From the IMG/VR virus record IMGVR_UViG_3300045988_121676, positions 49,569 through 113,568 of that record: a DNA stretch of 64,000 bases; one strand, 5' to 3'. Of the stretch, positions 7,861 to 49,953 are shown piece after piece. The stretch is from a virus. Each line of letters begins with the position of its first letter. Within the stretch, counting starts at the first letter, position 1. Below the pieces are notes generated by a model. That model ran no database searches. It saw only the letters and a list, made by a program, of their open reading frames with translations, and had not been told where the DNA came from. The position numbers and the translations under genes are program-made.

Positions 7861-8760
7861 ATGGATAAAGTTTCTGTTTTTGAAAGTTCGGATTTTGGAG
7901 AGCTTAGAATTATTGTAGATCCAAAAGGAGATGTTTGGTTTGTGGCGTCAGATGTGGCTAAATCTCTTGGATATATAAATGCTAAAGATGCGGTAAAAAG
8001 ACATGTAGATGATGATGATTCTATGCTTTTGCAAGTATCTGATAATCAATGGGGCGTAAAACGATCTATATTGAAAACCAGATATATAGATAGTATAAGA
8101 ATAATTAATGAATCTGGTTTATATTCTCTTATATTATCTTCAAAATTAGAGTCTGCTAAGAGATTTAAGAAATGGGTAACATCTGAGGTTCTTCCTTCTA
8201 TTCGTAAAACAGGAGAATACAAAACAAGTTCAGGCGGCAAGGGAATTTTGGTTCCTGACTTTTCTAATCCAGCAGATGCGGCAAGGGCATGGGCTGATCA
8301 GTATGAAGCTGCTCAGAGAGCTATAGCTGAAAAGTCGCAGGCAGAGGCAGAGAAGCAACAAGCCTTGAAAACAATAGAAGAGCATAAACCTGATGTGGAA
8401 TTTGCCGAGTCTTTTAGGAAAGTAGACCATAATAATATGTGGTTGATTCGTGATATTGCTAAAAAGTTAGAACAGAATGGTGTTATTATCGCCGAAAAGA
8501 ATCTTCGATCATTTCTTGAAGAAGCTAAGTTTATGTTTAGAAACGGTCTTGGAAAATGGGAACTATATAGCAATGTTGTAGCTAAAGGATATGGAGTATA
8601 TAGGTCTTATTTTGTTGATAAATATTCTGGTGAAAGAGTTAATCAACAAACTATCTACATGACAGGATCTGGATACGAAGTGACCCTCAATGGCATAAAA
8701 GGAAAACTCAAAAATGTATTTTTAAAATATGGTAAAATTCTACTTGCTTTATGCAGATAG
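7861..8760 (+). CDS. Bro-N domain / KilA-C phage antirepressor family protein
   Basis: N-terminal FGELRIIVDPKGDVWFVASDVAKSLGY is a Bro-N signature; C-terminal ANT/KilA-C-like region. Confidence 0.75.
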   Translation: MDKVSVFESSDFGELRIIVDPKGDVWFVASDVAKSLGYINAKDAVKRHVDDDDSMLLQVSDNQWGVKRSILKTRYIDSIRIINESGLYSLILSSKLESAKRFKKWVTSEVLPSIRKTGEYKTSSGGKGILVPDFSNPADAARAWADQYEAAQRAIAEKSQAEAEKQQALKTIEEHKPDVEFAESFRKVDHNNMWLIRDIAKKLEQNGVIIAEKNLRSFLEEAKFMFRNGLGKWELYSNVVAKGYGVYRSYFVDKYSGERVNQQTIYMTGSGYEVTLNGIKGKLKNVFLKYGKILLALCR

Positions 8761-9577
8761 TCTTTGATCTTGTTATTCCTTTTGTCGGTTAATGACCTTA
8801 TTTGTTTTGAAATCTGTTTATTGTCTTTTAACTTAGATTTTAAGAATGCTAACCTTTTGTTATAATATTGGTTAATAGACTTTAGTGGTCTACCATTGAT
8901 GATAAAACAAGAACCGGTGTTTGAAACACAAGATGCTAAATTATCCAATCCTATGTCGATGCCAAGATAGTTCCCATTATCGGACATAAGATTCTTTTCC
9001 TTCTTATTGTAAACTATTTCAAGAACAATATACCCATTCTTAGGAATGAATCTAAGTTGTTGAATATTTTGCTTGTTAGTTCTTGTTGTAAAGGAAAACT
9101 GTTTTGGTAACTTAACAATGCCTTGTTTTATCCATTTTTGAGAAAAAGCATTTGTTGCAAAAACAGCAGGAAACAAACCACCCTTGTTGAGATACCTTGG
9201 CATTCTTACTTCCTCAGAATACTCACCTCTATTCTTTTTATTAAAGAGATTGAAGAAAGATTTAAAGTTTCTATCAACCATCATCAATACTTGTTGAGCA
9301 ACCGGTGCTGGTAAAGCACCGGTTGCTCAACATCATTTTCTGTTCTTAACTTCTTTTCAAGAGAATAGTAGTTTAGGTACTTATACTTTACAGTATTATC
9401 ATCCTTGTATTGAAAATAATACTGTCTAACAACATATAACCCTTTATTGTATAAGTTTTTACACTTATGCAATAGATCATAAAGTTCATTGTAATAAACA
9501 GAACTTGGTTTGATCGTATGTTGTTCGACTAATCTCATGACACAAATATAGAAATTATTATTTATATATGAAAACAA
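8655..9577 (-). pseudogene. tnpB: decayed TnpB (IS605 OrfB) remnant: N-terminal HTH-like part (9284..9577) plus frameshifted middle part with RuvC-I (8655..9287); C-terminal half absent
   Basis: MRLVEQH..KNLYNKGLYVVRQ and IDIGLDNLA..INQYYNKR..DYLHKAS align to the intact TnpB at 22525..23736; homology stops where the bro gene ends (~8760). Confidence 0.7.
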
Positions 9578-9681
9578 ATTGGCGTATTTGTGGTGTAAAG
9601 TTGTATATAATTACCTAAAGATGTTAAAAATTGGCTCGAATCTTTACCCAAGATCTGAACCTATTTTTTTTCAATACCAGG

Positions 9682-9716
9682 CCCGATGCGATTTTAACGT
9701 ATCGGGTTTTTATTTT
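9682..9716 (+). terminator. terminator-like hairpin (cccgat/atcggg) plus T-run
   Basis: 6-bp stem, 13-nt loop, tttttatttt downstream; lies in the former left-end region of the decayed IS. Confidence 0.3.
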
Positions 9717-10010
9717 AATTCATATTGTTTTATTTTAAATCTAATTAATTCATGAATGTCGTACTTTTGTTGAAAAAGTATTCTATATGGAAAATAAGGA
9801 AGATTACGTTGGTTACGAAGATCAAGAACTGTGTAACCGGTATTACAAAGAGGCTGAAGCCATGAGGCAAAATCAGGACTGGCCTCGGCTTAGGGCTGTC
9901 CCTGCTCCGGCTAAGGGAACGCCATCGCCCGGCTGGGGACAGCTTGGACGTGGAAATGATGTCCGTGTTAAGTATGTTAGCATCAATTCAGGATTAGGAG
10001 GAGATAGGTT

Positions 10011-10226
10011 ATGACTGTAGAAGAATTGGTTAATAAAAGATACGGTGGCGAATTTGTTTTCATGTTTGGTCATCTTGAAGGTAGAACAAGATTCGTTTTT
10101 GAATGCTTTGATCCCAGACCTGATCACGAAGGTAAAAACACTTATATGGTTTCCTATTTTGATAAGGGACTTCGTAGAAGAGATGTGGTAGATGTGCCGT
10201 GTTATATGAATATTTTGCCAAAATAA
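10011..10226 (+). CDS. hypothetical small protein (71 aa)
   Basis: ORF in a co-oriented chain of small island genes. Confidence 0.35.
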   Translation: MTVEELVNKRYGGEFVFMFGHLEGRTRFVFECFDPRPDHEGKNTYMVSYFDKGLRRRDVVDVPCYMNILPK

Positions 10227-10429
10227 TGGAAACATTAATCTTAGATGTACCTGTATTTTCCGGTAAGATTATTTCTCCTATCTGGATTAAAGCCGTAAGA
10301 GATTTTCAATCCAAATCGAAGACAGAAAGAGACTCGTATTGTTTGATTTGTGGATGTACAGGAGGGTGTAACTTGTGCGATGATATAAGTAAATATAGGA
10401 TTTCAGAACAATTAAAATATTACAAATAA
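10199..10429 (+). CDS. hypothetical small Cys-rich protein (76 aa; CLICGCTGGCNLC)
   Basis: ORF whose stop overlaps the start of the downstream Tad2-like gene. Confidence 0.35.
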   Translation: MLYEYFAKIMETLILDVPVFSGKIISPIWIKAVRDFQSKSKTERDSYCLICGCTGGCNLCDDISKYRISEQLKYYK

Positions 10430-11160
10430 TGGAATTAAAAGATTCAGTCAGGGTAATGACTAAAGAAGAGTTCGAATCAGCAATCAACGAAGATATTAAA
10501 TTCGTTGAAGGAATTAAGCATTTTTTTAAACATGATGATGCTACGAGGGTAATGGAACACGTAAAGTCCGTGTTAGAGGCATCAGTAGACTACCACTACC
10601 CGAATCATCCTGAACCTGAAGCAGAACCTGGAGACATGGGAGAGGTTTCTGATGGATACCATACTTTCAATGAATTGTATCGGTACCGCATGTTGTATAA
10701 TGCCGCCTTCTTTAATCTATTAGCCAGAAACGGACAGGTTGAAGTTTGCAAATCAAGGAGACACAGCGATGGAGAAAAATGCTTCGGTTCTGATGATTGG
10801 TTTATTGTGATGGCGATCCTACCTACCGGTCAGGTATCTAATCACTATGAAAGCAAATACTGGGATTTGTTTGATGTTCCTGAAAGAGAAACCGCTTTCG
10901 AATACGATGGCCATACACCAAATGAAGCCTCCGACAGACTTGAAAAGTATCTCAAACTGCCTCGTCATGGCATGACATTCGAACAGGCTTTAGAACGGCT
11001 TAAATTAGGTCGTAAGATAAAAAGAATCGATTGGGGTAAAAAGTATATCTGTATGTTTGACGTAAATATATTGATGATAGATACAGGTCAAAAAGTAGCA
11101 TCAAATTGGAATCCAACCGAACATGATATTATGTCTAATGACTGGGAGATTGCGGGATGA
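10429..11160 (+). CDS. DUF2829 / Tad2-like (Thoeris anti-defence 2 family) domain protein with an unknown N-terminal domain
   Basis: C-terminal MTFEQALERLKLGRKIKRIDWGKK...WNPTEHDIMSNDWEI matches the DUF2829 pattern (F.EAL..LK.GKK..R..W ... W.P...D....DWEI), recognised from memory. Confidence 0.55.
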   Translation: MELKDSVRVMTKEEFESAINEDIKFVEGIKHFFKHDDATRVMEHVKSVLEASVDYHYPNHPEPEAEPGDMGEVSDGYHTFNELYRYRMLYNAAFFNLLARNGQVEVCKSRRHSDGEKCFGSDDWFIVMAILPTGQVSNHYESKYWDLFDVPERETAFEYDGHTPNEASDRLEKYLKLPRHGMTFEQALERLKLGRKIKRIDWGKKYICMFDVNILMIDTGQKVASNWNPTEHDIMSNDWEIAG

Positions 11161-11451
11161 GTTTGTATATCCGAAATAACATTAAAACAATATAATTTTA
11201 TTATAAGGTTTTAATGTACCATAAATGGTCCGGATATTAGCCTAAGCCTTGAAACGAAGGCTACGTTATTTAAGAATAGATAGTTACCTACGGATGTTTA
11301 CCCAAGTCTGTAGCTCTAAGGTAAGTGATTAAACAGTTCTGGTATTCAGGAACGGTGTTGCTTACTAAAAACCTTAAATAACATTGGCGATGGGTACTAA
11401 CAGAGTTTTACTCTGACTTATGTTGAATAAACATTAAAAACGTTTGTAGAT
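11161..11451 (+). ncRNA. candidate IscB omegaRNA (guide expected at the 5' end, scaffold up to the iscB ATG)
   Basis: 291-nt ORF-free, stem-rich interval filling the gap between the Tad2-like stop and the iscB ATG, where IscB omegaRNAs are encoded. Confidence 0.5.
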
Positions 11452-12672
11452 ATGGTGTACGTACAAGACATAAATGGTAAACCTTTGATGCCCACAACAA
11501 GGCATGGTAAGGTAAGACGACTGCTTAAAGACAAAAAGGCAGTCGTTGTAAACCTATGTCCGTTTACCATCAAATTAATGTACGTTACATCTGATTACAA
11601 ACAGGAAATTGTTTTAGGCGTTGATGCTGGAACTAAACATGTTGGTCTATCAGCAACGACGAAAAGCAAAGAACTTTACAGCAGTGAAGTAATTCTTAGA
11701 AATGATATCGTAGATCTTTTGTCTACCAGAAGAGAGCTACGGAAAGCAAGACGGAACAGGTTAAGATATAGAAAACCTCGTTTTGATAACAGAGTAAAAA
11801 GCAAGCGTCCAGGATGGATAGCACCTTCGGTGAAATACAAAGTAGACGCCCATATTCGTGTTGTTGAAAATGTTTGCTCTATATTACCAATATCTCGTAT
11901 TGTTATTGAAGTAGCTCAATTCGATACTCAAAAGATTAAGAATCCTGAAATATTAGGTAAAGAATACCAGGAAGGTGATCAACTTGAGTTTTGGAACACA
12001 AGGGAGTATGTTTTAGCAAGAGATGGACATAAATGTCAGTATTGTAAAGGAAAGTCAAAAGATTCTATACTGAATGTTCATCATATTGAGTCTCGAAAAA
12101 CCGGAGGGGATTCCCCTTCTAATCTTATAACTTTATGTGAAACCTGTCATAAGGAATACCATAAAGGTAATATAGATTTAAAGATCAGAAGAGGCAAGTC
12201 GCTTCGCGACGCAGCCGTAATGGGAATTATGAAATGGAGGTTGTATGAAGAGTTAAAATCCAGATACGACAGAGTTTTTATGACGTTTGGTTACATTACG
12301 AAACATAATCGGATTAAATATGGGATTGAAAAATCCCATACATCCGACGCGTTTGTCATTTCTAAGAATATTAATGCGAAACGAATCGAACGTCAATATT
12401 TAAAACGTTTAATTCGTAGACATAATAGACAAATACATAAAATGAAAATTTTAAAAGGGGGGAAGAAGAAAAACAATCAAGCTCCTTTTGAGGTTTTCGG
12501 TTTTAGGTTGTTTGATAAAGTGTTGTATAACAATAAAATATTCTTTGTTTATGGAAGGAGAAAATCAGGGAGTTTCAATATCAGGGATTTCAACGGAGAA
12601 AATTCAAAAGATGTTTCACGCAAAAAGTTTAAACTCATTAGAGGGAAGAGGCATCCGATTATATTAAAGTAA
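11452..12672 (+). CDS. iscB: IscB, OMEGA RNA-guided RuvC/HNH nuclease (Cas9 ancestor)
   Basis: N-terminal PLMP motif (GKPLMPT), RuvC-I GVDAGTKHVGLS, Arg-rich bridge helix RRELRKARRNRLRYRKPRFDNR, RuvC-II IVIEVAQFD, HNH CQYC..NVHHIESRKTGG..CETCH, RuvC-III HTSDAFVIS; 406 aa. Confidence 0.9.
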   Translation: MVYVQDINGKPLMPTTRHGKVRRLLKDKKAVVVNLCPFTIKLMYVTSDYKQEIVLGVDAGTKHVGLSATTKSKELYSSEVILRNDIVDLLSTRRELRKARRNRLRYRKPRFDNRVKSKRPGWIAPSVKYKVDAHIRVVENVCSILPISRIVIEVAQFDTQKIKNPEILGKEYQEGDQLEFWNTREYVLARDGHKCQYCKGKSKDSILNVHHIESRKTGGDSPSNLITLCETCHKEYHKGNIDLKIRRGKSLRDAAVMGIMKWRLYEELKSRYDRVFMTFGYITKHNRIKYGIEKSHTSDAFVISKNINAKRIERQYLKRLIRRHNRQIHKMKILKGGKKKNNQAPFEVFGFRLFDKVLYNNKIFFVYGRRKSGSFNIRDFNGENSKDVSRKKFKLIRGKRHPIILK

Positions 12673-12709
12673 ATGAACGGATTTAATAAATTTAATAGAA
12701 AAACGTATC

Positions 12710-13015
12710 ATGTATAATAAAGAAATAGTAATATGCGCGGCCATCTGGGTGCAGGACGGCAAGAAGCGTCCTCATCAGCCCACCAATATACCATCCGGCG
12801 CCGTATTTTGTGGATTGAGACATTGTTCTATCATTTCTCAGTTTGCGGCATACGGTATAGCTCATAAAAACCGCAGTGTTCAAGGATTTTTGACAAGCAA
12901 GAACCGGTTTCTGACGAGAGAAGAAGCGTCTGAGCTTGTTAAGAACAATAATCAGGAGATGGTAGTAGATAGGAATGCTATTAGAGAACAATTGTATTCA
13001 GAAGATTTATATTAA
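12710..13015 (+). CDS. hypothetical protein (101 aa)
   Basis: ORF 37 nt after the iscB stop; no stretch I can place with confidence. Confidence 0.45.
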   Translation: MYNKEIVICAAIWVQDGKKRPHQPTNIPSGAVFCGLRHCSIISQFAAYGIAHKNRSVQGFLTSKNRFLTREEASELVKNNNQEMVVDRNAIREQLYSEDLY

Positions 13016-13032
13016 CTAAAAAACAAAACAAC

Positions 13033-13308
13033 ATGGGGTTTAAAATCAAAAAGTCAATCATTTATAATATGATGAACGGCAATCAGTTAGAGTATGTATT
13101 TGACAACATTAATTTAGATCATATCACATTTAAAGGTAATGGTAAAGAATCTTTTTCATTTAACAGAGCCCTTGTTGAAAATTTAATTGAGACATTTGAT
13201 ACTATGCAGGATATATACTCTGATAATTACGGAATTAAGGTTTATACCGGTAATTGCATAATTCAACTGAATGTAAATCCAAAGAACTTAAGTGAATCCT
13301 TTTTTTGA
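13033..13308 (+). CDS. hypothetical protein (91 aa)
   Basis: co-oriented ORF in the island. Confidence 0.4.
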   Translation: MGFKIKKSIIYNMMNGNQLEYVFDNINLDHITFKGNGKESFSFNRALVENLIETFDTMQDIYSDNYGIKVYTGNCIIQLNVNPKNLSESFF

Positions 13309-13443
13309 CGTATATGATAGAGATGAGATGAAATTGATATATAGTATAAAAAATAGTATCTTGAAAGAAATGTTTATCATATGATTACCAAGCAGGACAT
13401 ATCATAAAAAATGGCGGAATTGAACTATTTAAACAAATAATAA

Positions 13444-13477
13444 AGTCGGGTACGTAAGTTATCCGACTTTTTTTTAT
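13444..13477 (+). terminator. rho-independent terminator (agtcgg/ccgact stem + T8)
   Basis: 6-bp stem, 13-nt loop, eight Ts. Confidence 0.5.
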
Positions 13478-13486
13478 ATTTGTGGC

Positions 13487-13810
13487 ATGGCAAGAGGTTA
13501 TTATTGGATACCGCAGACAGATGAAACGTTAAATGGCAGAAGCTATTACGTGGCTAAGATAGTAGGAGATATCACGTTTGATACTAAACGAAAAAGAATC
13601 GTATTTCAAGCTGATAGGTATTTCCCTGTAGGATCTGTTTTCCATTTTACGCACAATTGCTTCAACTATATCATAACTTGCCGACTTCGTAAGCCGGGGC
13701 TTTGGTTTGAAGCCAGAAGAGAGGATTCGGGCCCTATTTGCCCTGAAGATATTGAGCGCTTTGAATCGGGAAGGTTTATACACCGAGATGGGTACATGCA
13801 TTACATATAA
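13487..13810 (+). CDS. hypothetical protein (107 aa)
   Basis: ORF bounded by terminators. Confidence 0.4.
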   Translation: MARGYYWIPQTDETLNGRSYYVAKIVGDITFDTKRKRIVFQADRYFPVGSVFHFTHNCFNYIITCRLRKPGLWFEARREDSGPICPEDIERFESGRFIHRDGYMHYI

Positions 13811-13814
13811 GCCG

Positions 13815-13852
13815 AACTTGACAATTGGCGTCAAGTTATAATTATTTTTTTT
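13815..13852 (+). terminator. rho-independent terminator (aacttgac/gtcaagtt + T-run); a second hairpin aagctatc/gatagctt at ~13865-13904
   Basis: 8-bp stems followed by T tracts, just after the 107-aa ORF. Confidence 0.45.
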
Positions 13853-13925
13853 CATATCATTTTTAAGCTATCAGACTGAGAAGTTAGATAGCTTTATTTT
13901 TTATGATATGCTTGATTTTTAACTA

Positions 13926-13940
13926 CCTTTGTCTTATAAC
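13926..13940 (+). promoter_or_regulatory. candidate Bacteroidota-type -7 box (TAccTTTG matches TAnnTTTG) for the 2140-aa gene
   Basis: tacctttg about 22 nt upstream of the ATG at 13955; no Shine-Dalgarno present. Confidence 0.25.
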
Positions 13941-13954
13941 AAAAATGTTTTACT

Positions 13955-16900
13955 ATGACATCAACGTGTATTATTAAAAGAGATAATAGAAAGAAAGTTG
14001 TTTCTGTCTCTACCAGATCAGGGGACAGGTCTATGTTGTTTGATAAAATAGCATCTATTCCTCTTATGGAGAATAGGGAACGGGCTACTACTGTTTTTAA
14101 AACCGTATTTTCTAATAAGTTCTTAAAGGCTTTTGGCGACTGGAGAAAGAGAGTGCCTATCAATAAACAGGCCTACAATAAGGTGAAATCCAACATCTAT
14201 CTTATTCCGGAAGCTTATAGAGAAAGGGTGCTGGATAAGGCTTCTAAGATGAGTAATCCTGTTCTTGTATCAAAATCAGATGCACCTTATGGGATTCAAG
14301 AATCAGGCTTCGGATTCTATAGCCAAGATCTGGGTGATAATATTATGTTGGTGGATGCTATGGTTCCGTCAAGTATTTCCGTACCGGAAGGACCTGGAAT
14401 AGACGCCGGACAGTATCTACAAGATGCTATATCTTCGGACTTTACTCCCGTATTTATGGTACAGGATAAGGGTGTTAATTATATGGTTATAAAAGACGGT
14501 CTTAAGATATTTAGCCCAGAAGAGTTACCAGAAACAGATTCTAATCCTGTGGGTGTAACGTATCAGACCGGAGAGCCTCGTTTGTTTTTCATGAACGATC
14601 GTAATCAATTATTTGAAGATTACGGAGAAGCTCTTCGCTCTGGCGGGAATGATATTAGAATAGGATTCTTATCCGGCACCGTTCAAGAATCTACCGTGGA
14701 TGGCGTGGCAGACATTACTTACAAGGCTGGAAAGTATGTTCTTAATAATCCCAAGTCTTTTATACCGGTCATGACCGCTTCTGCTTCTACTTCTTTATCA
14801 ACGAAAGGCGGGATAATTAACTACCTTATAAAGAAAGGTCTTTTGTCCGGATCCAAGATATTCGATCCTGAAACAAGGAGCTATTATCTTACAGGAGAAG
14901 GACATACAGGACAAATTAGACTTTTCAATTCAGCATTATCCTACACCGAGCTCCGTAATCATTTTGGTTCCGATGTTTCCATGAACGACCAAGGTATGAT
15001 AACCATAAGCTCGTTGGATAATAGTAAGGTAACTATGAGGCTCGCTACCGGAGGAACGGAGAGGGTTAGCAAGGAGCAGATAAAGAACGATCTCAAGTCA
15101 GGAAGATACAATGAATTGGATGCTAAGTACGATCATTTTGATGCGCTTGTAGTTTCATTCATATTAGAAGACAACGATCTTTATGCTGATACTAAAGCTA
15201 AGATCGTATCAGATTATAGCAGGCAGGAACGTGATCAACGAAATTCTATTGTCGAGATACTGAAAACGCTTGGCGTTAGTGTCATAGGTATGACCGATTA
15301 TATAGAGAAGTACCAAACCAAATACGGGCATGAACCTTCTGCTAAGGCATTGGCGGATATTGCTAATAACGTAATAGCAGTTGGTGAAGATGCTACTTTA
15401 TCTGATTTAGTAGAAGAAACAGCCCACTTCCTTGTAGAGGCATACAGAGATCAGAATGCTGTTGAGGCTGTTCTGCAAGATGTGGAAGGTACGGAAGAGT
15501 GGAACCAATATGCAGGTCAGTATTATAATACATACGGTAAAGTATATGAAGGAGCTGAGCTTGATAATGCTGTTAGGAGAGAAATTCTTGGAAAGATCCT
15601 CGCCAGGGAGATGCAGACCGGCACAGCACAGGCGCCGGTAGAGCCCACCTCCTTCCTGGGGCGCGTCCGGCAGCTTTTCTCTGGAATCGTAAGCTGGCTT
15701 AAATCAGCTTTATCAACCCAAAGACAAGATTTGAATAACGTTATTAAAAACATTCGTGATCTTGCCATTACTGACATAGATAAAGGATTTGACACCTCTC
15801 TGTTAAAGGATAATGACTTTACATTATACTCCCTTTCTTCTATGAACAAGAACAAGTTTCTTGAGTCCAAGATCAGATCACTAAGAAAAACATTAAGAGA
15901 CTTACGTCAGATAAGCTCTGATAGGGCTGTAACTACGTCTATGACCCTTGCTCAGCTTAAGACCATAGAAGATAAGATAAATAAGGTAGAGACCGAAATA
16001 GACAAGAATGAGATGGCGGCTGCCATGAACAGCATGATCTCCACAGCCGAAGCTCAGGTCAGATACTTAAGTAATGTGGTGAACACCATCCTTCATGGTG
16101 ATACCAAAGACGGTAAGCTTCACTTCAATACCAATGATCGAAAGAACGTAGATATTATCAACAATCAGGTTCTTCCGATCATGAACGATCTTCGAGGATA
16201 TATCCGTAACAGAAGTACCGAATTTGATGAACGTGAAAAGCAGGATTATACAAATAGGATCAATACCGTCATTGCCGACATCAATGGTATTCAGTCTGAT
16301 ATTAAATCAGTACAAGACCTTGATGAAAGTACGTTGCTTGATAAGTTAATGAACGAACTTCATGTGCCGGCAGATAAGGTAAAGAGAGTAAAAGAATTTT
16401 TTGACAAGGTTCAACACGATGTTTCTTGGATAAGTAGGTGGTTTGGTATATTAGAGCATTCTTCCAGTCCGTTCAATAACGCTCTTGGAGCTATGATTGC
16501 CAAAGACAATTACAATGCGATGGTGAATGCCCAGCCCGCCATATCCGACTTCCTGGCATATGCGAAAAAGCATGGTTTTAACAAATCTGAATTTGAAAAA
16601 CTGCTTCAGAAAGTAGACGGCAAAACTTCTAATTACCTTCGTAGTGCTCTTGATATGGCTAAATACGATCGTAATAAGAAGCTGGCGCAGATGCGAGCGT
16701 TTGCGACTGCCATGAACATAGAGATATCAGAAGAAGAAATTGGTGATGTGGTTGACAATAACCGTAATTACGTATTTAAAAGAGAAGTAGTTGACAAGGA
16801 TGGAAATACGGTTACTGAAAACGCTAAATTCAAACCATCGTCTGATAGAGTTAATACCGATATTTTTACCATCGAGCAGGAAAAGATCTATACAGAGCAG

Positions 16901-19900
16901 ATGGAAAAGTGGGATGCTGAAAATTCGGAACTGGAATTTAGTGAAAGTTATGCCACAAGAATGGAATCCATATACAAAAAGGCTGAAGAAGAATTAGGGC
17001 ATCCAGTTTCTCAAACAACTAAAGAATATCTTAATGCTCTTTCCCGGCAAAAACGAATACTGAGGCAGCCTTTTATTGATAGCGGTGGTAATTTTGATGA
17101 GGTTGCTTACTATAAGAGTAGTAACTACGAAGAAGAAGGACTGCTTCGTAAACAACGTAAGGAAGCAGCTTCGGAATACATATATGTTGGTACCAGACGT
17201 GTTGAAAAAACCGGCGACCAACTTAAGATGGCTAAAGAAATACAAGCCATAAATGAAGTTTGGAGAAAAGAATCAAATAATGTCACTAATGCCGTATCAG
17301 AATCATTTTTGGAAAGATTGAGAACGATTCAGCGTGAGTCTGGAGGAGAAGCTGCGCTGAAGACACTTATGTTGGGAGGTCACCTGTCATTTAATGATCG
17401 GTTTTGGAATGATGTAGAATCGGAACAGTCGGCACGTACCGAATCAAATAACAAGGCTTCGTATCTCAAAATGGCGCATGATATCATTAGTTCTACAACA
17501 AGTGATAGAGATGCGACTGACGTGGATTCTATTGTGAAAGATATAGAAAAAAATAAGGCTATTATCAAGGAAATAATCGGAAACAATCGCGATGTGGCTG
17601 ATATCGGAGAGATTAACGAAGCGACATTTACCTCATCTGAAAGAGATGCTTTTAGGGCCGCATCTGAAGCTATTGAAGCCGATTACGCTATTTTGATAGA
17701 TTATGCTAAGATGGTGGGTCTTGAAGATATTGATAAGTACCTTACTAAAAGCAGTAAGGCTGAAAACGAAGTAAATCAGTCTTATTTAAATGCTCTTGCT
17801 GACTCCAAGGAAGTGGAATGGAAGTTCGTACAACGTCATACTACGGCGAAGAAAGCAAAAAGGATTCAGGCTTTAAGGGATAAGCTGTTTGAGGCTGCTG
17901 ATAACCGATATTTGTTTACCGTATCTGAAACCAACTACCTGTCAGAAAAGCTTGGTATAAGCAAAGAATTAGACGGTAGAGATTTTAGGAATGCTGTTAA
18001 TGCTAAGATGGCCAGCTTGTTTTTAAATAATACAAGAGAAGAGGGCATAGAAGAAGCTAATGCTATTGTTAACGAATTTGCCAGGAGCCAGGTCTTTTCG
18101 TACTATAAACGCATGGCGCCTACCGGATATGCGGCTATGATCGACAAAATAGGTCGAGGTGAGATAGATGTGGCGCAGATGGTTAAGGACGTACAAAACG
18201 GTACATCCACCCAAGATTATGGCATGGACATATCGTACCTGTCTTTCGACCCTGCAAGGGCATGGGTGGCTGAATCTGAAGCCGAAAATAGCGGCCGTAA
18301 TCCTGATTATGTAAAAGATCATGGGTATGGTCATCGAATGCCTAAGAAAAGCCTATATCGTGATGAATCGTATTTCAATGACTTTGGTATCAAGTATGAT
18401 GCTGACGGTAATGAAGTTGCTACTAAAAACGTAGAGCAGTGGAATATGATTCAAAAACTCAAGGAAATAAAAAGACAATCCCTTGATCTATACAAAGAGC
18501 AGAGCCCGAACCTGTATGCTATTCCACAGATATCAAAACAAGACATAGAACGTATGGAAGGATTGGGTATTAACTTCAAAAATACGGTTCGTAATTTTGT
18601 ATCAGATCTGTGCCTGGACAGAGTAGACGATTCTCTATACGGTAAAACCAGGCAAGGAGAAGTGTATGATCCGGAAGACAGACTTAGGTCTATACCCAAA
18701 TACTACATATATGAATTGGAGAACCAAGATGATGTATCTCACGATTTTGGCTACTCTTATTCTATGCTTATGATGCAGTCATCGTTATATAACGAAAAGC
18801 AGAAGTCTATAGAGCTTGCCCAAGGACTGGAGCAGATGTTACTGAATAAACAATTTGAAGGCGGTAAGAAGGCTGAAGCAACCCAAGCATATCAGATGTT
18901 CAGGGACTTCTTCAACGATCATTATTATGGCATTAGGATGAACACCAAAAAACTTACGGTGAACATCGGAGGATATACGGTAGACCTTACAAGAATTATG
19001 ATGGCTGTTGAAAGATTTATGTCGGTCATGAACTTGGCACTGTCTCCGTTTGTGGCAGCTACCGGCGCCCTGACAGGTCATATCAACCTCATCATGGAAT
19101 CTGCCGTAGGACAGTATATAAGCAAAGACTCCCTTAAATACGCATCGGCTGAATTTTCACGCCTTGCTCCATCTTGTATAGCAGAAACCGGAGACATAGA
19201 TAGGAAAAGCAAATTATATGTCATAGGTGAGAGAATGGGGATATTCAATATCCGAAATCGTATGTATGGTGCCGGATACAATAGAGTGGCCAGGACCTTA
19301 ATGCGTTCACCTATGTATGCTTTTATGGAAATCCTGAACTACCCTCTTGATCCGCAGGTTATGATTGCTACTATGGACAATGTTCGTTATTACAAAGGCC
19401 GGTTCTACACGTTCCAAGATTTCAAGATGGAAAAAGAACGCAATAAAGAACAGAGTACCATAAAAAGAGAATGGAATGCATTAAAAGATCGTACTTTATG
19501 GAGTATGGTAGATGTCGTGGATGGGAAGGTGGTTGTAAAGCCCGGATCAGGTGTTACTGTTGAGGAAGTTGAAACCCAGATGGCTATAACCAGGAATCAA
19601 GTCCGTAGCTTGTCGCAGATATGTAACGGATCTTTGAATGAAGAAAACCGAACTGCCGCATCGCGCAACTGGATAGCCAGGTTCATGACCGCCCACCGAG
19701 GCTGGCTGGTGCTGGCAGCTCAACGTCTGTGGAAAAGACGTGGCTTCAATTTCCAGACAATGCAAGAAGAGGAAGGGTTGTCAATTACGTTAAAGAATAT
19801 GATAGCCAAAACATTTAGCCTGGCTTCCGAGTCTGGTATGAAAAACATCATAGATGCCTGGAACGAAAATAAAGACAATATGAATGAGGTAGAAAAAACT

Positions 19901-20377
19901 AATCTCAAACGCCTCAGTGTCTATGCCGGCACGTTCCTTATCATGCAGGCCGTATCTATGCTTCTTGCCGGATGGCGTGATGATGATGAAAACGAAGAAA
20001 GTTGGCTTACTCAATTTGGATCCTATGTCGGATTCAGAACCATAAACGAAATAGCTTCACAGATGCCGTTTATTATGGAGCTTAACGTGGTAGATATCAT
20101 TAACGATCCGTTTGTTATGGGGCGAAAACTGAAGGATCTTACCGATCTTAGGAATTATTCACTTGATAAAGTAACATCCGGTACATACAAGGGAGAGTCT
20201 AAGTTATTTAGGCAACTCGCCAAACAGACGTTTATCAAACAATGGTATAATATCAAGACGCCGGAAGACGTAGCGCGCGCCTATAATTGGTGGCAGCAGA
20301 CGAACAACAAGTCAATGATGTTCTTCATCGGCGCTACTCCTGATTCGGAAGGAGACGATGACGTTAGTTACAAATAG
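13955..20377 (+). CDS. giant protein (2140 aa), probable virion-packaged cargo/ejection protein
   Basis: 6.4-kb intact ORF; no DxDGD RNA-polymerase motif found by eye. Confidence 0.8.
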   Translation: MTSTCIIKRDNRKKVVSVSTRSGDRSMLFDKIASIPLMENRERATTVFKTVFSNKFLKAFGDWRKRVPINKQAYNKVKSNIYLIPEAYRERVLDKASKMSNPVLVSKSDAPYGIQESGFGFYSQDLGDNIMLVDAMVPSSISVPEGPGIDAGQYLQDAISSDFTPVFMVQDKGVNYMVIKDGLKIFSPEELPETDSNPVGVTYQTGEPRLFFMNDRNQLFEDYGEALRSGGNDIRIGFLSGTVQESTVDGVADITYKAGKYVLNNPKSFIPVMTASASTSLSTKGGIINYLIKKGLLSGSKIFDPETRSYYLTGEGHTGQIRLFNSALSYTELRNHFGSDVSMNDQGMITISSLDNSKVTMRLATGGTERVSKEQIKNDLKSGRYNELDAKYDHFDALVVSFILEDNDLYADTKAKIVSDYSRQERDQRNSIVEILKTLGVSVIGMTDYIEKYQTKYGHEPSAKALADIANNVIAVGEDATLSDLVEETAHFLVEAYRDQNAVEAVLQDVEGTEEWNQYAGQYYNTYGKVYEGAELDNAVRREILGKILAREMQTGTAQAPVEPTSFLGRVRQLFSGIVSWLKSALSTQRQDLNNVIKNIRDLAITDIDKGFDTSLLKDNDFTLYSLSSMNKNKFLESKIRSLRKTLRDLRQISSDRAVTTSMTLAQLKTIEDKINKVETEIDKNEMAAAMNSMISTAEAQVRYLSNVVNTILHGDTKDGKLHFNTNDRKNVDIINNQVLPIMNDLRGYIRNRSTEFDEREKQDYTNRINTVIADINGIQSDIKSVQDLDESTLLDKLMNELHVPADKVKRVKEFFDKVQHDVSWISRWFGILEHSSSPFNNALGAMIAKDNYNAMVNAQPAISDFLAYAKKHGFNKSEFEKLLQKVDGKTSNYLRSALDMAKYDRNKKLAQMRAFATAMNIEISEEEIGDVVDNNRNYVFKREVVDKDGNTVTENAKFKPSSDRVNTDIFTIEQEKIYTEQMEKWDAENSELEFSESYATRMESIYKKAEEELGHPVSQTTKEYLNALSRQKRILRQPFIDSGGNFDEVAYYKSSNYEEEGLLRKQRKEAASEYIYVGTRRVEKTGDQLKMAKEIQAINEVWRKESNNVTNAVSESFLERLRTIQRESGGEAALKTLMLGGHLSFNDRFWNDVESEQSARTESNNKASYLKMAHDIISSTTSDRDATDVDSIVKDIEKNKAIIKEIIGNNRDVADIGEINEATFTSSERDAFRAASEAIEADYAILIDYAKMVGLEDIDKYLTKSSKAENEVNQSYLNALADSKEVEWKFVQRHTTAKKAKRIQALRDKLFEAADNRYLFTVSETNYLSEKLGISKELDGRDFRNAVNAKMASLFLNNTREEGIEEANAIVNEFARSQVFSYYKRMAPTGYAAMIDKIGRGEIDVAQMVKDVQNGTSTQDYGMDISYLSFDPARAWVAESEAENSGRNPDYVKDHGYGHRMPKKSLYRDESYFNDFGIKYDADGNEVATKNVEQWNMIQKLKEIKRQSLDLYKEQSPNLYAIPQISKQDIERMEGLGINFKNTVRNFVSDLCLDRVDDSLYGKTRQGEVYDPEDRLRSIPKYYIYELENQDDVSHDFGYSYSMLMMQSSLYNEKQKSIELAQGLEQMLLNKQFEGGKKAEATQAYQMFRDFFNDHYYGIRMNTKKLTVNIGGYTVDLTRIMMAVERFMSVMNLALSPFVAATGALTGHINLIMESAVGQYISKDSLKYASAEFSRLAPSCIAETGDIDRKSKLYVIGERMGIFNIRNRMYGAGYNRVARTLMRSPMYAFMEILNYPLDPQVMIATMDNVRYYKGRFYTFQDFKMEKERNKEQSTIKREWNALKDRTLWSMVDVVDGKVVVKPGSGVTVEEVETQMAITRNQVRSLSQICNGSLNEENRTAASRNWIARFMTAHRGWLVLAAQRLWKRRGFNFQTMQEEEGLSITLKNMIAKTFSLASESGMKNIIDAWNENKDNMNEVEKTNLKRLSVYAGTFLIMQAVSMLLAGWRDDDENEESWLTQFGSYVGFRTINEIASQMPFIMELNVVDIINDPFVMGRKLKDLTDLRNYSLDKVTSGTYKGESKLFRQLAKQTFIKQWYNIKTPEDVARAYNWWQQTNNKSMMFFIGATPDSEGDDDVSYK

Positions 20378-20514
20378 ACGAAGAATATCGGACTTGCATT
20401 GTTTTTGTATGATTCCAATATGTTATATTAGCATCGTCAAAGAGTAGATTGTACGTTTTTTGTTCTTACTTGAAAGATTATGTAGGTTTAATTTTTTCTG
20501 AAATTGTTTTCTTA

Positions 20515-20557
20515 CCGGTTCTCAGTCAGAGATAATAGAGAACCGGTTTCTTTTATG
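20515..20557 (+). terminator. rho-independent terminator (ccggttctc/gagaaccgg + U-run)
   Basis: 9-bp perfect stem, 15-nt loop, tttcttttat, about 140 nt after the giant-gene stop. Confidence 0.55.
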
Positions 20558-20567
20558 TTGTCAATTA

Positions 20568-21211
20568 TTGCTATCTTGCAAACAAAAAATCATGAAACGA
20601 AGATTTCAAATAGGGATGGGGGTAAATCCCTCGCTTATAATCAATAAAGGCATATACATCCAACATGTAGATGGAGGATTATATACAAAAGAAAATTGGT
20701 CTAATAAAGGATATTCCAATGATCTATGCAATGGAATAGCTCTTGTAGATAAAGTGTGTTTTGTTATAGCCACCGAATATATTGGCACATTTCGTTGGGG
20801 TAAGGATGGAGAAATAGAAAATATATTTGCACAAGATAGTTCTCATATGGGAACTATTAAAAAGGATTATTGGGGGGCGTGAAAATCAGAATGCGTATCT
20901 TGAATATGATACCAGTAATACAGATTACGCTTTTAATAAAGCTAATAGCTATTTATTTAAAAATGGTCAAAATGGATATGTAGGTGGCGCCGGAGAGTTT
21001 TTTTTTGATATCATTGTATGCTAATGAAATAAACGAATGCCTTTTAATGGTAGGAGGTACGATAATGAGTAATAGAATGTGGACATCCACTCGAAATGAA
21101 AAATTTTCCTATTCGTGGTATTATGATATAAACATCCAAGGAGATCATTTGGATACAGGTTCAAGGGGTAGTTCACATTATGTCCGTCCTTTTACTGAAT
21201 TAATTTTATAA
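20568..21211 (+). pseudogene. possible frameshifted gene: three consecutive overlapping ORFs in frames 0/+1/+2 (20568-20882, 20827-21024, 20984-21211); likely start MKRRFQIG at ~20592
   Basis: ORF chain crosses all three frames within 640 nt; N-terminus MKRRFQIGMG resembles MRRRFENINTVAGG of the downstream gene. Confidence 0.3.
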
Positions 21212-22440: not shown

Positions 22441-22524
22441 CGTGTGCGGAGAATGAGGCTGGTGAGGGGTGCCACATTTTGGACATACGAGTTGGTAATT
22501 ATATACAAGTTTACACCTGTAATA
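22400..22524 (-). ncRNA. expected position of the TnpB right-end omegaRNA (reRNA) tail and guide-adjacent segment
   Basis: 84-nt non-coding gap after the tnpB stop, where IS605 reRNAs end; structure not verified. Confidence 0.25.
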
Positions 22525-23736
22525 TTAGTTAATAAATTTCTTAACCGGGTTATACCCAAACCCTGTATAGGGTGGCATTACTGCATCCCCTTTTACTTTT
22601 CTCATAATATTATAACTTCCGTTGACATCAGCGTTTAACAACACACCGTCTTTTGTCCTAAAGATTCCTCTTTTCAACCTTTTACCAACGTAAGTATTAT
22701 GATGACATACTTTCTCCAAATCATAAGAACTGCATTTTGACGTATGAGACTCATTTACTACAAAGAATCTTAGTCCTTGTCTTTCTGATTTGTACTTTAA
22801 CATTGATATAAAATCACCAAATGGGATAAAAACAAAATTCTGGTTGCTTCTCTTACCTATATTAACTTCCTGTTTCCATCCGTCATTATGACCTATTATC
22901 AATGTAGTTATATTATCTTCAACACAAATATCTATGATTTTTTTACTTGCTTTATGAAGATAATCCCTTACCTTGCTATTTCTTTTTCTTGTTAAAGACG
23001 CTAACCGTCTCGAATTTTTCTTGCCATTTACTTTCTCCAATTTACTTTGTAAAAACGAACGTTTCTTATTATAATATTGATTGATGGATTTCAACTTTCT
23101 TCCATCTATCAATACCGGTTTGTTACTAACGTTAGTAACAACAGAAGCAAGGTTATTAACACCTAAGTCTATAGACATTATCCTATTGTTGTCAACTTTT
23201 TGTTTTTTACAACAAGATTCGTAAACTAATTCAATAACATAACATCCTTGTCTTGGTATTATCCTAACTTGTTTAACACTACCTTCTTCACACTTTGTTT
23301 TTAAGGGAGGTAGTCCTTCTTTCTTAGGGAAATAAATATATTCACCTCTATGCCGTATTTGGGCATAAGAATAGTTAAAAACATTCCTGCCCTTTACCTT
23401 ATCCTTGTACTTAGGGAACTTAGGACATCCTGTGAATTTCTTGTTATCCCTTTTCCAAGCCTTAATAGAAGAGAAATAAGATTTTAGATTCTTATCTAAT
23501 CCCATCAATATCTGTTGTGAAGAAGATCCACTTAATGCCCTGAAATCAGGATTGTTTTCAGATACCATTTTCTTGTTAAGATCCGTACATCTAATCCACT
23601 TTCCTGTATTAAGGAACTCTTGTTTGATAACATAAAGTCCAGCATTATACAGGTTCTTTGACAAGAAACAGATACGATCTAACATCTTATATCTCCTATC
23701 ACCTTGGGTAATTATATGTTGTTCTACCAAATACAT
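22525..23736 (-). CDS. tnpB: TnpB (IS200/IS605-family OrfB, IS1341-like, no TnpA) RNA-guided nuclease
   Basis: 403 aa; RuvC-I IDLGVNNLA, zinc finger CSSYDLEKVCHHNTY, RuvC-III DVNGSYNIMRK; N-terminus paralogous to the 9284..9577 fragment. Confidence 0.9.
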   Translation of the reverse strand: MYLVEQHIITQGDRRYKMLDRICFLSKNLYNAGLYVIKQEFLNTGKWIRCTDLNKKMVSENNPDFRALSGSSSQQILMGLDKNLKSYFSSIKAWKRDNKKFTGCPKFPKYKDKVKGRNVFNYSYAQIRHRGEYIYFPKKEGLPPLKTKCEEGSVKQVRIIPRQGCYVIELVYESCCKKQKVDNNRIMSIDLGVNNLASVVTNVSNKPVLIDGRKLKSINQYYNKKRSFLQSKLEKVNGKKNSRRLASLTRKRNSKVRDYLHKASKKIIDICVEDNITTLIIGHNDGWKQEVNIGKRSNQNFVFIPFGDFISMLKYKSERQGLRFFVVNESHTSKCSSYDLEKVCHHNTYVGKRLKRGIFRTKDGVLLNADVNGSYNIMRKVKGDAVMPPYTGFGYNPVKKFIN

Positions 23737-23768
23737 GCTGCAAACATAAATAGAATATTTTAAATACG

Positions 23769-24002
23769 CTATTTATATTTCACGATCTTAATAGAATCTC
23801 CGATATTGTATTCCCCTTGGTATCCAACGAATTTTATAAGCCTATTATTATAAAATATTGAAATTCTTTCGTCTTCAGCATAATACATCACACGTTCACC
23901 CTGTAAAGGACGTAGATCATATATAACCCATCCGTCATTAACCTGATGATTATTTGAACATGATGATAATACTAATGTCATCAATAAAATAAAATACTTC
24001 AT
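23769..24002 (-). CDS. small lipoprotein (77 aa; MKYFILLMTLVLSSC lipobox); the track start at 24065 is probably too far upstream
   Basis: internal Met followed by a hydrophobic segment and an LSSC lipobox. Confidence 0.5.
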   Translation of the reverse strand: MKYFILLMTLVLSSCSNNHQVNDGWVIYDLRPLQGERVMYYAEDERISIFYNNRLIKFVGYQGEYNIGDSIKIVKYK

Positions 24003-49209: not shown

Positions 49210-49953
49210 TTAAAGCGCCTCATCGGTTCCTAAAAGATGCTCATTTCCTTGGTATGGAATACACTCTTTGTATCTCAAACCTCCCAAGCATTCATATTTG
49301 TATTCTTCTTCTCTTACTCTGGCAAATAAGTGTAGATTCCAATTTCCCAAATTGCTTGCTCTCACCAAGACTTGATCGAATGGCTTAAAATCGCATTTCT
49401 TTTCTTTAGTCAGCAAGTATTCGTACTCACTTAGATATTGTTTTATTATTCCTGCTTTTTTAAGGTTTTCTGTATTAGCAATTCTTTCAGCAAAAGATTT
49501 TTTCTCTTCCTCTGTGGCTAATCTAACATACTTGGATTTATCCTCACCACACACACTTGTCCATATTGGAACTTCTTCAGATGTAATCTCGCCATATGCC
49601 GATATACCATATATGCATCCCATATCTCCTTCTCTATTAATAATACCATTATATATAAATGGGTTCCCAAGCGTGCTTATTAATACATCTCCTTTCTTAA
49701 AATACGCTCCAGCCTCTACTTCCAATTCCAGAACGTTGTTGAAAAAAGTACGACCTTCTGTATCGGCATATATAGCACTTATCCCAGATTCATCTTTTTT
49801 TACAAAAAGTAAATTATAACGATCTGCACAGTCTTTTGACTCATATACAAATTCTATTTTAATATTACCAATTAATACTGAACCTTCTATTTCTCCGCTT
49901 TTAATTTTTCTCGCCGTATTTAAATCAAACGGAACAATAATTGGATTTTCCAT
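49210..49953 (-). CDS. hypothetical protein (247 aa)
   Basis: ORF. Confidence 0.55.
   Translation of the reverse strand: MENPIIVPFDLNTARKIKSGEIEGSVLIGNIKIEFVYESKDCADRYNLLFVKKDESGISAIYADTEGRTFFNNVLELEVEAGAYFKKGDVLISTLGNPFIYNGIINREGDMGCIYGISAYGEITSEEVPIWTSVCGEDKSKYVRLATEEEKKSFAERIANTENLKKAGIIKQYLSEYEYLLTKEKKCDFKPFDQVLVRASNLGNWNLHLFARVREEEYKYECLGGLRYKECIPYQGNEHLLGTDEAL

Follow-up and report, generated by a model that had tools for sequence, protein, structure and literature searches.

A likely non-autonomous, phage-resident IscB-omegaRNA element with proposed homing activity in crAss-like gut phages

We analyzed a 64,000-nucleotide stretch of viral DNA (IMG/VR record IMGVR_UViG_3300045988_121676, positions 49,569 to 113,568; the whole stretch is called the window here). 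An earlier reading of its letters alone, the original prediction, had put forward an open reading frame (ORF) as a complete IscB, an RNA-guided OMEGA nuclease, encoded within a phage genome. The ORF (11452-12672, plus strand, 406 amino acids) was placed exactly as claimed, and every motif that had been named was present: the PLMP domain, the split RuvC, the bridge helix, and the HNH domain with its CxxC..CxxC cysteines. The product matched the NCBIfam equivalog "RNA-guided endonuclease IscB" (guided_IscB) at 359.2 bits, with a cutoff of 175, as well as Pfam RRXRR (PF14239), which corresponds to the PLMP/RuvC N-terminal module, over amino acids 2 to 175 (model positions 1 to 174 of 174; 204.6 bits) and Pfam HNH over amino acids 195 to 238 (43 bits). 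Solved IscB structures (OgeuIscB and others; PDB 7utn, 7xht, 8csz, and 11hr) aligned to residues 2 to 333 with E values of 1e-42 to 1e-46. The RuvC catalytic set was complete, RuvC-III included (D58, E153, H296, and D299), and the zinc-binding cysteines (C195/C198 and C229/C232) and the histidines H210/H211 all fell within the HNH domain. The motif residues were unchanged across 15 family members, and residues 335 to 406 were also kept within the family. Judged by these matches, the ORF is a genuine, full-length IscB with each catalytic and structural hallmark from the PLMP domain to RuvC-III, and cleavage activity is predicted for it. The 3' part of the gene also contains a 16-nucleotide unit repeated 1.9 times (12564-12593, plus strand; ATCAGGGAGTTTCAAT), for which we suggest no role.

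Upstream of iscB, on the same strand, the Rfam HEARO model (RF02033) matched positions 11192-11401 at 107.7 bits (gathering threshold, 83) and was covered from position 1 to 211 of 211, so that the omegaRNA is full-length. Compensatory changes were found at 16 of its base pairs among the phage copies. The first seven nucleotides of the scaffold, ATATCCG, pair with CGGATAT about 70 nucleotides downstream, and a second subfamily of the element (subfamily 2) has ATAATCG and CGATTAT at the same two places, which is a compensatory difference; the region folded with a z score of -5.2 and was structured from the first base. Because of the onset of conservation, the heptamer pairing, the fold, and the covarying pairs, we set the start of the scaffold at 11167 and the predicted guide at 11151-11166, with a guide length of 16 nucleotides taken from published IscB architecture. 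The guide DNA is phage flank, consisting of the end of a Tad2-like gene and the opening codons of a Zn-ribbon ORF that has been deleted (both described below), and its sequence occurs once in the window. In every copy of the element that we examined the guide was the adjacent flank, and no CRISPR-like or other guide array was found within several kilobases of iscB. Stand-alone omegaRNA copies, 77 to 89% identical to that of the window, were seen in four related loci (L021:3999-4234, L014:1118-1359, L044:613-855, and L082:9451-9692) and none in the window; no iscB followed the L021 copy, the only one inspected. Such copies could be mini-elements that depend on an IscB supplied in trans.

The ends of the element were determined by comparison of 79 related phage loci (the main locus set was the best 80 of 342 IMG/VR relatives; L numbers denote loci). 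On the 5' side, conservation started abruptly at 11167 (ATATCCGAAATAAC...) in about 35 differing contexts, with subfamily 2 starting ATAATCGCGAAT, and on the 3' side it extended 37 nucleotides beyond the iscB stop codon and halted just before an ATG. In total, the left junctions numbered at least 35 and the right junctions about 13, and the junction ATG mostly opened a phage ORF of at least 80 amino acids. Wherever the window or one of the retrieved loci supplied an empty allele, the left flank was followed directly by ATG (14 of 14 sites), for which the chance is about 3e-25 at the ATG frequency of the window (0.0176). All 24 distinct junction or empty-site sequences started with ATG, position 4 was never C, and positions 5 and 6 were mostly A or T. 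At the two cleanest sites (L046 and L044/45), the element had inserted between the flank and the ATG without target duplication, and the empty allele was equal to the left plus the right flank. For the 3' end itself, the predicted hairpin was weak and nonsignificant (z, -0.1 to -0.3). By its sharp ends, its lack of terminal inverted repeats and of a target-site duplication, and its short specific motif, the element is assigned to the IS200/IS605 (ISC) insertion sequences (IS).

The claim of a phage setting also held. The window from 9000 to 21000 is 96% identical to GenBank OR575929 ("Phage csAssE-Sib, complete genome"; here, crAssE-Sib), a 151-kb phage genome from the human gut. Its annotation includes terminase, portal, major capsid, ring, and muzzle proteins; genes for a terminase, a portal, a crAss capsid, and muzzle proteins are also found on related contigs. 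crAssE-Sib belongs to the Epsilon crAss-like group (proposed genus Epsilonunovirus) and has predicted Bacteroidia hosts; the paper describing it mentions two TnpB genes and does not mention IscB (PMC11054128). This genome is without the IscB cassette and has 266 bp in place of window 11167-12706 (1540 bp), and these 266 bp encode a 91-amino-acid Zn-ribbon protein, from its fourth codon through the start codon of the next gene. Among the IMG/VR loci with the Tad2-like neighbor gene (n = 80), about 70 had the Zn-ribbon ORF, 6 had the element in its place, and none had both. Among 160 loci, there was no case in which the element had simply inserted at 12710 and left the Zn-ribbon ORF in place. 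The Tad2-like gene lies upstream of the element (10429-11160, plus strand) and encodes WDGH and Tad2-like (Thoeris anti-defence 2-like, formerly DUF2829) domains, which makes the description of the locus as next to candidate anti-defence genes a fair one, while a 2140-amino-acid gene downstream encodes a virion structural protein.

The IMG/VR scan returned 342 relatives of the IscB, of which the best 80 were 82 to 100% identical and lay mostly on contigs of about 80 to 160 kb; several contigs held two copies. At least 35 different guides were present in the family. Most of the ORFs were intact, with 406 to 408 amino acids, and a few copies had premature stops or partial loss of the RNA (decayed copies: L019, L017, L026, L050, L051, L074, and L076). 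The ratio of nonsynonymous to synonymous substitution rates (dN/dS) between iscB copies was 0.06 to 0.19, at dS values of up to 1.1 to 1.7. In a search of representative genomes from 185,579 species of bacteria and archaea, the closest match was 86% identical, the next 69%, and the rest 60% or lower, and over 10.8 kb the contig with the 86% match shared 96% identity with these phages. This 20-kb contig (L163; NZ_JBHMEP010000019.1, labelled Vibrio olivae CECT 8064), for which the 10.8 kb match gut crAss-like contigs, is most likely contamination or mis-binning and not Vibrio sequence. From the distribution, the identity levels, and the dN/dS values, we conclude that the IscB family has a long history, is presumably functional, and hardly occurs outside these phages. 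Two loci (L013 and L022) were chimeric, with a 5' omegaRNA of the subfamily 2 type and the iscB and right junction of the window's type, which indicates recombination between element subfamilies.

In the PHROGs collection, two "HNH endonuclease" families matched the IscB over residues 1 to 313 and 2 to 324. Thus, IscB-like genes are common but mislabelled in phages, and the original prediction assumed this setting of an IscB to be rarer than it is. The family is abundant in a large protein collection, and its only name in NR is "RRXRR protein [Bacteriophage sp.]"; one exact sequence was indexed in 987 assembly blocks, adjoining the crAss capsid module. In the literature on IscB in phages or in crAss-like phages, we found no description of this family.

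The 342 copies, the at least 35 guides, the dN/dS of 0.06 to 0.19, and the lack of a cellular relative above 69% identity lead us to regard the element as phage resident and non-autonomous. We consider it likely that 11167-12709 is a non-autonomous IS200/IS605-family (ISC-type) IscB-omegaRNA element of Epsilon crAss-like gut phages, the proposed homing included. Its most likely activity would be RNA-guided homing during co-infection, with alleles of other phages that are older or lack the element as the targets. On the best reading, such homing would serve the selfish logic of the element itself rather than be a tool of the phage, by analogy with the selfish logic of IS605 IscB and TnpB shown by Meers et al. 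(PMC10055086).

In this model, read-through transcription from the co-oriented phage genes would yield an omegaRNA with its 5' 16 nucleotides from the flank, and IscB with this RNA would recognize the 16-mer followed 3' by ATG(D). Since the 16-mer is followed by the ATA of the scaffold in carriers, the combination of guide and ATG is restricted to genomes without the element at that place. On co-infection of a carrier and a non-carrier, or upon excision, IscB would cut the empty allele, and recombinational repair would copy the element together with the linked flank. Cutting after excision would be restorative, and cutting during a mixed infection would be non-restorative, that is, a gene drive. 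New sites would be reached through a Y1 transposase (TnpA) acting in trans, which would insert the element next to CAT/ATG. Copies at neighboring ATGs would then recombine, or one-ended events would occur, with the DNA between being lost and the new guides also attacking older carrier alleles.

Comparison of carriers and non-carriers gave results that agree in part with this model. Some element-free genomes matched the window at 99.6% identity on the left flank but at only 84% over the first 700 bp of the right flank, and the median identity of the right flank was 92% for carriers versus 87% for non-carriers; the other flanking bins did not separate the two classes. At three of six sites, the element was much less diverged than its flanks (98.5 to 99.4% versus 92 to 97% identity), whereas at the other three it was no younger than they were, so that the comparison of element age with flank age is supportive and not decisive. 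A 2026 review gives homing into co-infecting phages as theoretical only, with non-restorative homing demonstrated only for TnpB on plasmids (PMC13565253).

The three sites at which the element was no younger than its flanks are among a number of observations that weigh against our interpretation. The linkage of right-flank alleles to the element could reflect common descent rather than co-conversion. No Y1 TnpA was found by tblastn of the window and 160 loci with three Y1 transposase sequences as weak probes, no TnpA was present in the crAssE-Sib annotation (record positions 1-50000 and 60001-151256), and no Y1_Tnp Pfam match occurred within 6 to 10 kb of other copies (8 further copies at 10 kb). 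The absence of TnpA in cis, which makes the element non-autonomous, is the usual state for iscB, about 1.5% of iscB genes having a tnpA nearby (PMC10055086). Most of the occupied sites were replacements and not clean insertions, a pattern that classical peel-and-paste transposition does not predict. One insertion looks fixed and vertically inherited. As to the protein, the C terminus gave no alignment by sequence to solved chains, either with the C-terminal 82 amino acids alone or with a family profile, and an AlphaFold model built from the 15-sequence family alignment was too poor for use (mean predicted local distance difference test score, 41). Finally, the guide length, the target-adjacent motif (TAM), and the activity of this IscB family are all predictions from sequence.

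The copy in the window adds to these difficulties. The sequence before the element was GAGTTTGT in the window, L004, and L008, and GAGTTTGTTTGT in L005, L011, L012, and L051, as in the empty alleles. The window guide was therefore 4 nucleotides shorter than the guides of sister copies (for example, GGATGAGTTTGTTTGT in L005), with the deletion on the TAM-proximal side. Its exact match in the empty alleles preceded TTGTATG, that is, TTG and not ATG, and in no sampled allele did the window guide lie beside ATG. In the ATG-adjacent register, the guide matched at 9 of 16 positions, 6 of them contiguous, when aligned by hand. The protein and the scaffold of this copy are intact. Because of the TAM-proximal deletion, the window copy is probably unable to cut the common empty allele, and its competence for homing is doubtful unless TTG is tolerated.

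Among the replacements, two right junctions (the window ATG at 12710 and "ATGAATCGTT" in subfamily 2) were each paired with more than 10 different left junctions, and in every available empty allele an ATG directly followed the position of the new left junction. This calls for either a TnpA-type one-ended adjacent deletion or independent insertions at neighboring ATGs followed by recombination between copies; in L034, two direct copies of the element lie 2.7 kb apart. Microhomology-mediated end joining through the shared "AT" was considered for the large left deletions and was rejected, as the third base of the empty allele was always G and not the A that the ATATCC microhomology would favor. 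The progressive leftward loss of DNA removed part of the Tad2-like gene in L007, L010, L015, L016, and L020, and other variants had left junctions upstream of this gene.

Small changes were found at the guide/scaffold junction as well. Independent deletions of 4, 6, 10, 14, and 25 nucleotides and one duplication of 13 nucleotides occurred there between copies with near-identical flanks (L006, L009, L061, L064, L071, L072, and the window at 11163-11166), while the 110 nucleotides beside them held no other indels save changes in poly-A length. These indels lie at the place where the nuclease is expected to cut and may be repair scars. The window also contains perfect targets, with 16 of 16 guide positions and the ATG, for the guides of four other variants (Table 1), as well as matches of 15 of 16 positions to the L007, L025, and L052 guides, and because of the perfect targets newer variants could overwrite the window allele. 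About one-fourth of the sampled empty alleles (L083-L162, at the position of window 11166/11167) had TTG instead of ATG, a change that is a synonymous GTA-to-GTT substitution in the Zn-ribbon ORF. A few other empty alleles had expanded TTTG repeats in the target. Both kinds of change may be resistance to cutting, or they may be due to chance.

We tentatively raise the possibility, which we hold to be somewhat less probable than its opposite, that the family acts in the phage population as a natural gene drive guided by RNA, whose newer variants would overwrite older ones and progressively erode accessory genes such as the Tad2-like gene. If this were true, the junction indels would be repair scars, the ATG-to-TTG change would be a drive-resistance allele, and each new left junction would give rise to a guide that matches element-free genomes and older, less-deleted genomes alike.

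Of the other explanations, we considered first that the window copy, or even the whole family, is inactive and is kept by vertical descent and ordinary phage recombination. The out-of-register guide of the window, the failure to find TnpA, and the divergence of the element, as great as that of its flanks at half of the sites, all fit such an inert passenger, as does the lack of a precise excision joint (left flank plus 0 to 8 nucleotides plus ATGTRTAATAAAG), for which a pattern scan of IMG/VR gave 0 matches. However, a dead family would not be expected to show a dN/dS of 0.06 to 0.19 at dS values reaching 1.7, nor to keep its catalytic set intact and its omegaRNA pairs covarying, and the many left and right junctions point to repeated movement. 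We therefore judge this explanation to be unlikely overall; it is unlikely for the family as a whole but may hold for the single window copy.

That the IscB has been domesticated as a weapon against competing phages, plasmids, or host DNA, to the benefit of the phage, seems to us improbable. The strong purifying selection on IscB, the near fixation, in an abundant lineage, of one copy that adjoins the capsid module, and the position of the cassette in an accessory region adjoining a Tad2-like gene would suit this role, and cutting of element-free relatives would exclude their markers, as for phage homing endonucleases (PMC13565253). Against it stand guides that are always the adjacent flank, with no guide array, an element that is polymorphic in presence and position and that has decayed copies, and a loss of the Tad2-like gene that goes with the element in several relatives and so is a cost rather than a service. 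Of the functions proposed in the original prediction, homing was favored by guides that equal the flank and by empty alleles that carry the 16-mer and ATG. Nothing pointed to hosts, plasmids, or unrelated phages as targets, since no guide differed from its own flank. The further proposal that the element is not merely a passive IS insertion stands in this respect, that the family is specific to a phage group, old, and under purifying selection, so that no recent hop from a host is involved.

A recent passive insertion from a bacterial host into one phage genome has very little probability: gut bacteria often carry IS200/IS605 elements, and a non-autonomous copy depends on TnpA from the host, but hundreds of viral contigs carry relatives at 82 to 100% identity, the species representatives hold no cellular copy above 69%, and the same cassette at the same site in many phage contigs already contradicts it. 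An ordinary protein-guided HNH homing endonuclease, as the "HNH endonuclease" and "RRXRR protein" labels of PHROGs and GenBank would have it, is next to impossible and is already contradicted by the RuvC, bridge-helix, and PLMP architecture, the IscB equivalog match, and the adjacent full-length omegaRNA. A Cas9/CRISPR assignment was also rejected, as there is no array within several kilobases and no recognition (REC) lobe in 406 amino acids, and Cas9d and YnpsCas9 gave weak, partial matches only.

Table 1. Positions of the element, of the IscB domains and catalytic residues, and of sister-guide targets in the window
Feature	Position	Strand	Remarks
Whole IscB/omegaRNA element	11167-12709	+	1543 bp, without transposase
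Predicted guide, 16 nt	11151-11166	+	TGCGGGATGAGTTTGT; directly 5' of the element's first conserved base
omegaRNA scaffold (HEARO RNA)	11167-11451	+	Rfam match, covariation, fold; doubles as transposon end (RE of Meers et al.)
Other element end (left end in the TnpA frame)	12673-12709	+	Conserved across insertion sites; ends ...AAAAACGTATC
ATG, proposed TAM and insertion-site motif	12710-12712	+	Also start codon of downstream 101-aa phage gene, 12710-13015
PLMP domain	aa 1-50	+	PLMP motif at aa 11-14
RuvC-I D58	11623-11625	+	In GVDAGT, aa 56-61
Bridge helix	aa 93-111	+	Arg-rich
RuvC-II E153	11908-11910	+	In IEVAQ, aa 152
HNH domain	aa 193-240; H210/H211 at 12079-12084	+	CQYC 195, VHHI 209, CETCH 229
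RuvC-III H296/D299	12337-12348	+	HTSDAF at aa 296
C-terminal domain, putative	aa 335-406	+	No assignment to TAM-interaction domain
Target of L018 guide, 16/16 + ATG	10046-10061	+	Perfect match in window
Target of L010 guide, 16/16 + ATG	10654-10669	+	Perfect match in window
Target of L015 guide, 16/16 + ATG	11037-11052	+	Perfect match in window
Target of L021 guide, 16/16 + ATG	29608-29623	-	Perfect match in window

Elsewhere in the window, an intact TnpB of 403 amino acids is encoded at 22525-23736 (minus strand), with OrfB_IS605 and Cas12f1-like TNB domains. The region of this gene (22503-23777) is an insertion, as crAssE-Sib has 17 bases there, with about 30 nucleotides differing around the junctions. 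The phage carries in it another OMEGA element, one not related to the IscB element. A TnpB remnant at 8655-9577 (minus strand) consists of two ORFs, one of 210 amino acids that matches OrfB_IS605 and one of 97 amino acids that has no Pfam match and was assigned by eye. The remnant lies within an 880-bp stretch that corresponds to 3.2 kb in crAssE-Sib, where several small genes accompany one for a "spike protein".

Experiments on homing by OMEGA nucleases have so far been carried out with bacteria and plasmids in the laboratory. In the family described here, the natural alleles run into the hundreds, some empty or occupied and others deleted or decayed; their guides match and their motif is a single, simple one, and an RNA-guided gene drive in phages is therefore testable. 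Many phage annotations of "HNH endonuclease" or "RRXRR protein" hide IscB-omegaRNA systems, and the element appears to have caused gene loss repeatedly within the crAss-like accessory region, with its candidate anti-defence gene. A 406-amino-acid IscB from the human gut with a proposed 3-nucleotide ATG motif is also a candidate for compact genome editing.

The element is a canonical member of an established class, the non-autonomous IscB-omegaRNA IS elements, in a setting that is undescribed in the searchable literature. With OgeuIscB and the other solved IscBs it shares the PLMP domain, the split RuvC, the bridge helix, the HNH domain, and a HEARO-type omegaRNA. The window IscB is about 90 amino acids shorter than OgeuIscB (406 versus 496 amino acids), and its C-terminal 70 amino acids do not align to the TAM-interaction domain. 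The TAM of OgeuIscB is NWRRNA, compared with the ATG proposed for the family of the window. A parallel in element structure is GstIscB of the IS605 family from Geobacillus stearothermophilus, in which the omegaRNA abuts the transposon end RE and the guide comes from the flank (PMC10055086). In both elements the omegaRNA lies directly upstream of iscB and the copies are non-autonomous, without tnpA, and the two proteins are compact and similar in layout, with catalytic D58 and H209/H210 in GstIscB, which Meers et al. (2023) inactivated by D58A/H209A/H210A (PMC10055086), versus D58 and H210/H211 here. The GstIscB TAM, TTCAT, reads ATGAA in the IscB orientation (PMC10055086), next to the proposed ATG(D)(W) of the window family. 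The two differ in that GstIscB resides in a bacterial chromosome, whereas the present family is found in phage genomes, has an adjacent deletion or replacement at most of its occupied sites, and is known only from its sequence.

The free-standing homing endonucleases Seg and Mob of phage T4 (PMC13565253) are alike in the placement of a nuclease gene between conserved phage genes, in presence/absence polymorphism, and in a linked flank allele, and the window family is predicted likewise to cut the allele without the element during co-infection. Unlike Seg and Mob, it would be targeted by a guide RNA copied from the flank and not by the protein, so it is not a member of that class, and it would tell self from non-self by the interrupted target and TAM, as in intron homing. 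A similar behavior to the proposed one is seen in the TnpB-driven IS605 gene drive on plasmids of Mears et al. (2025, bioRxiv), which, as cited in a review (PMC13565253), homes in a non-restorative way, turning copies of a co-resident replicon that lack the element into carriers, and does not need TnpA. As cited there, that drive is experimental and concerns TnpB and plasmids, whereas the present case concerns IscB and phages and comes from comparative genomics only.

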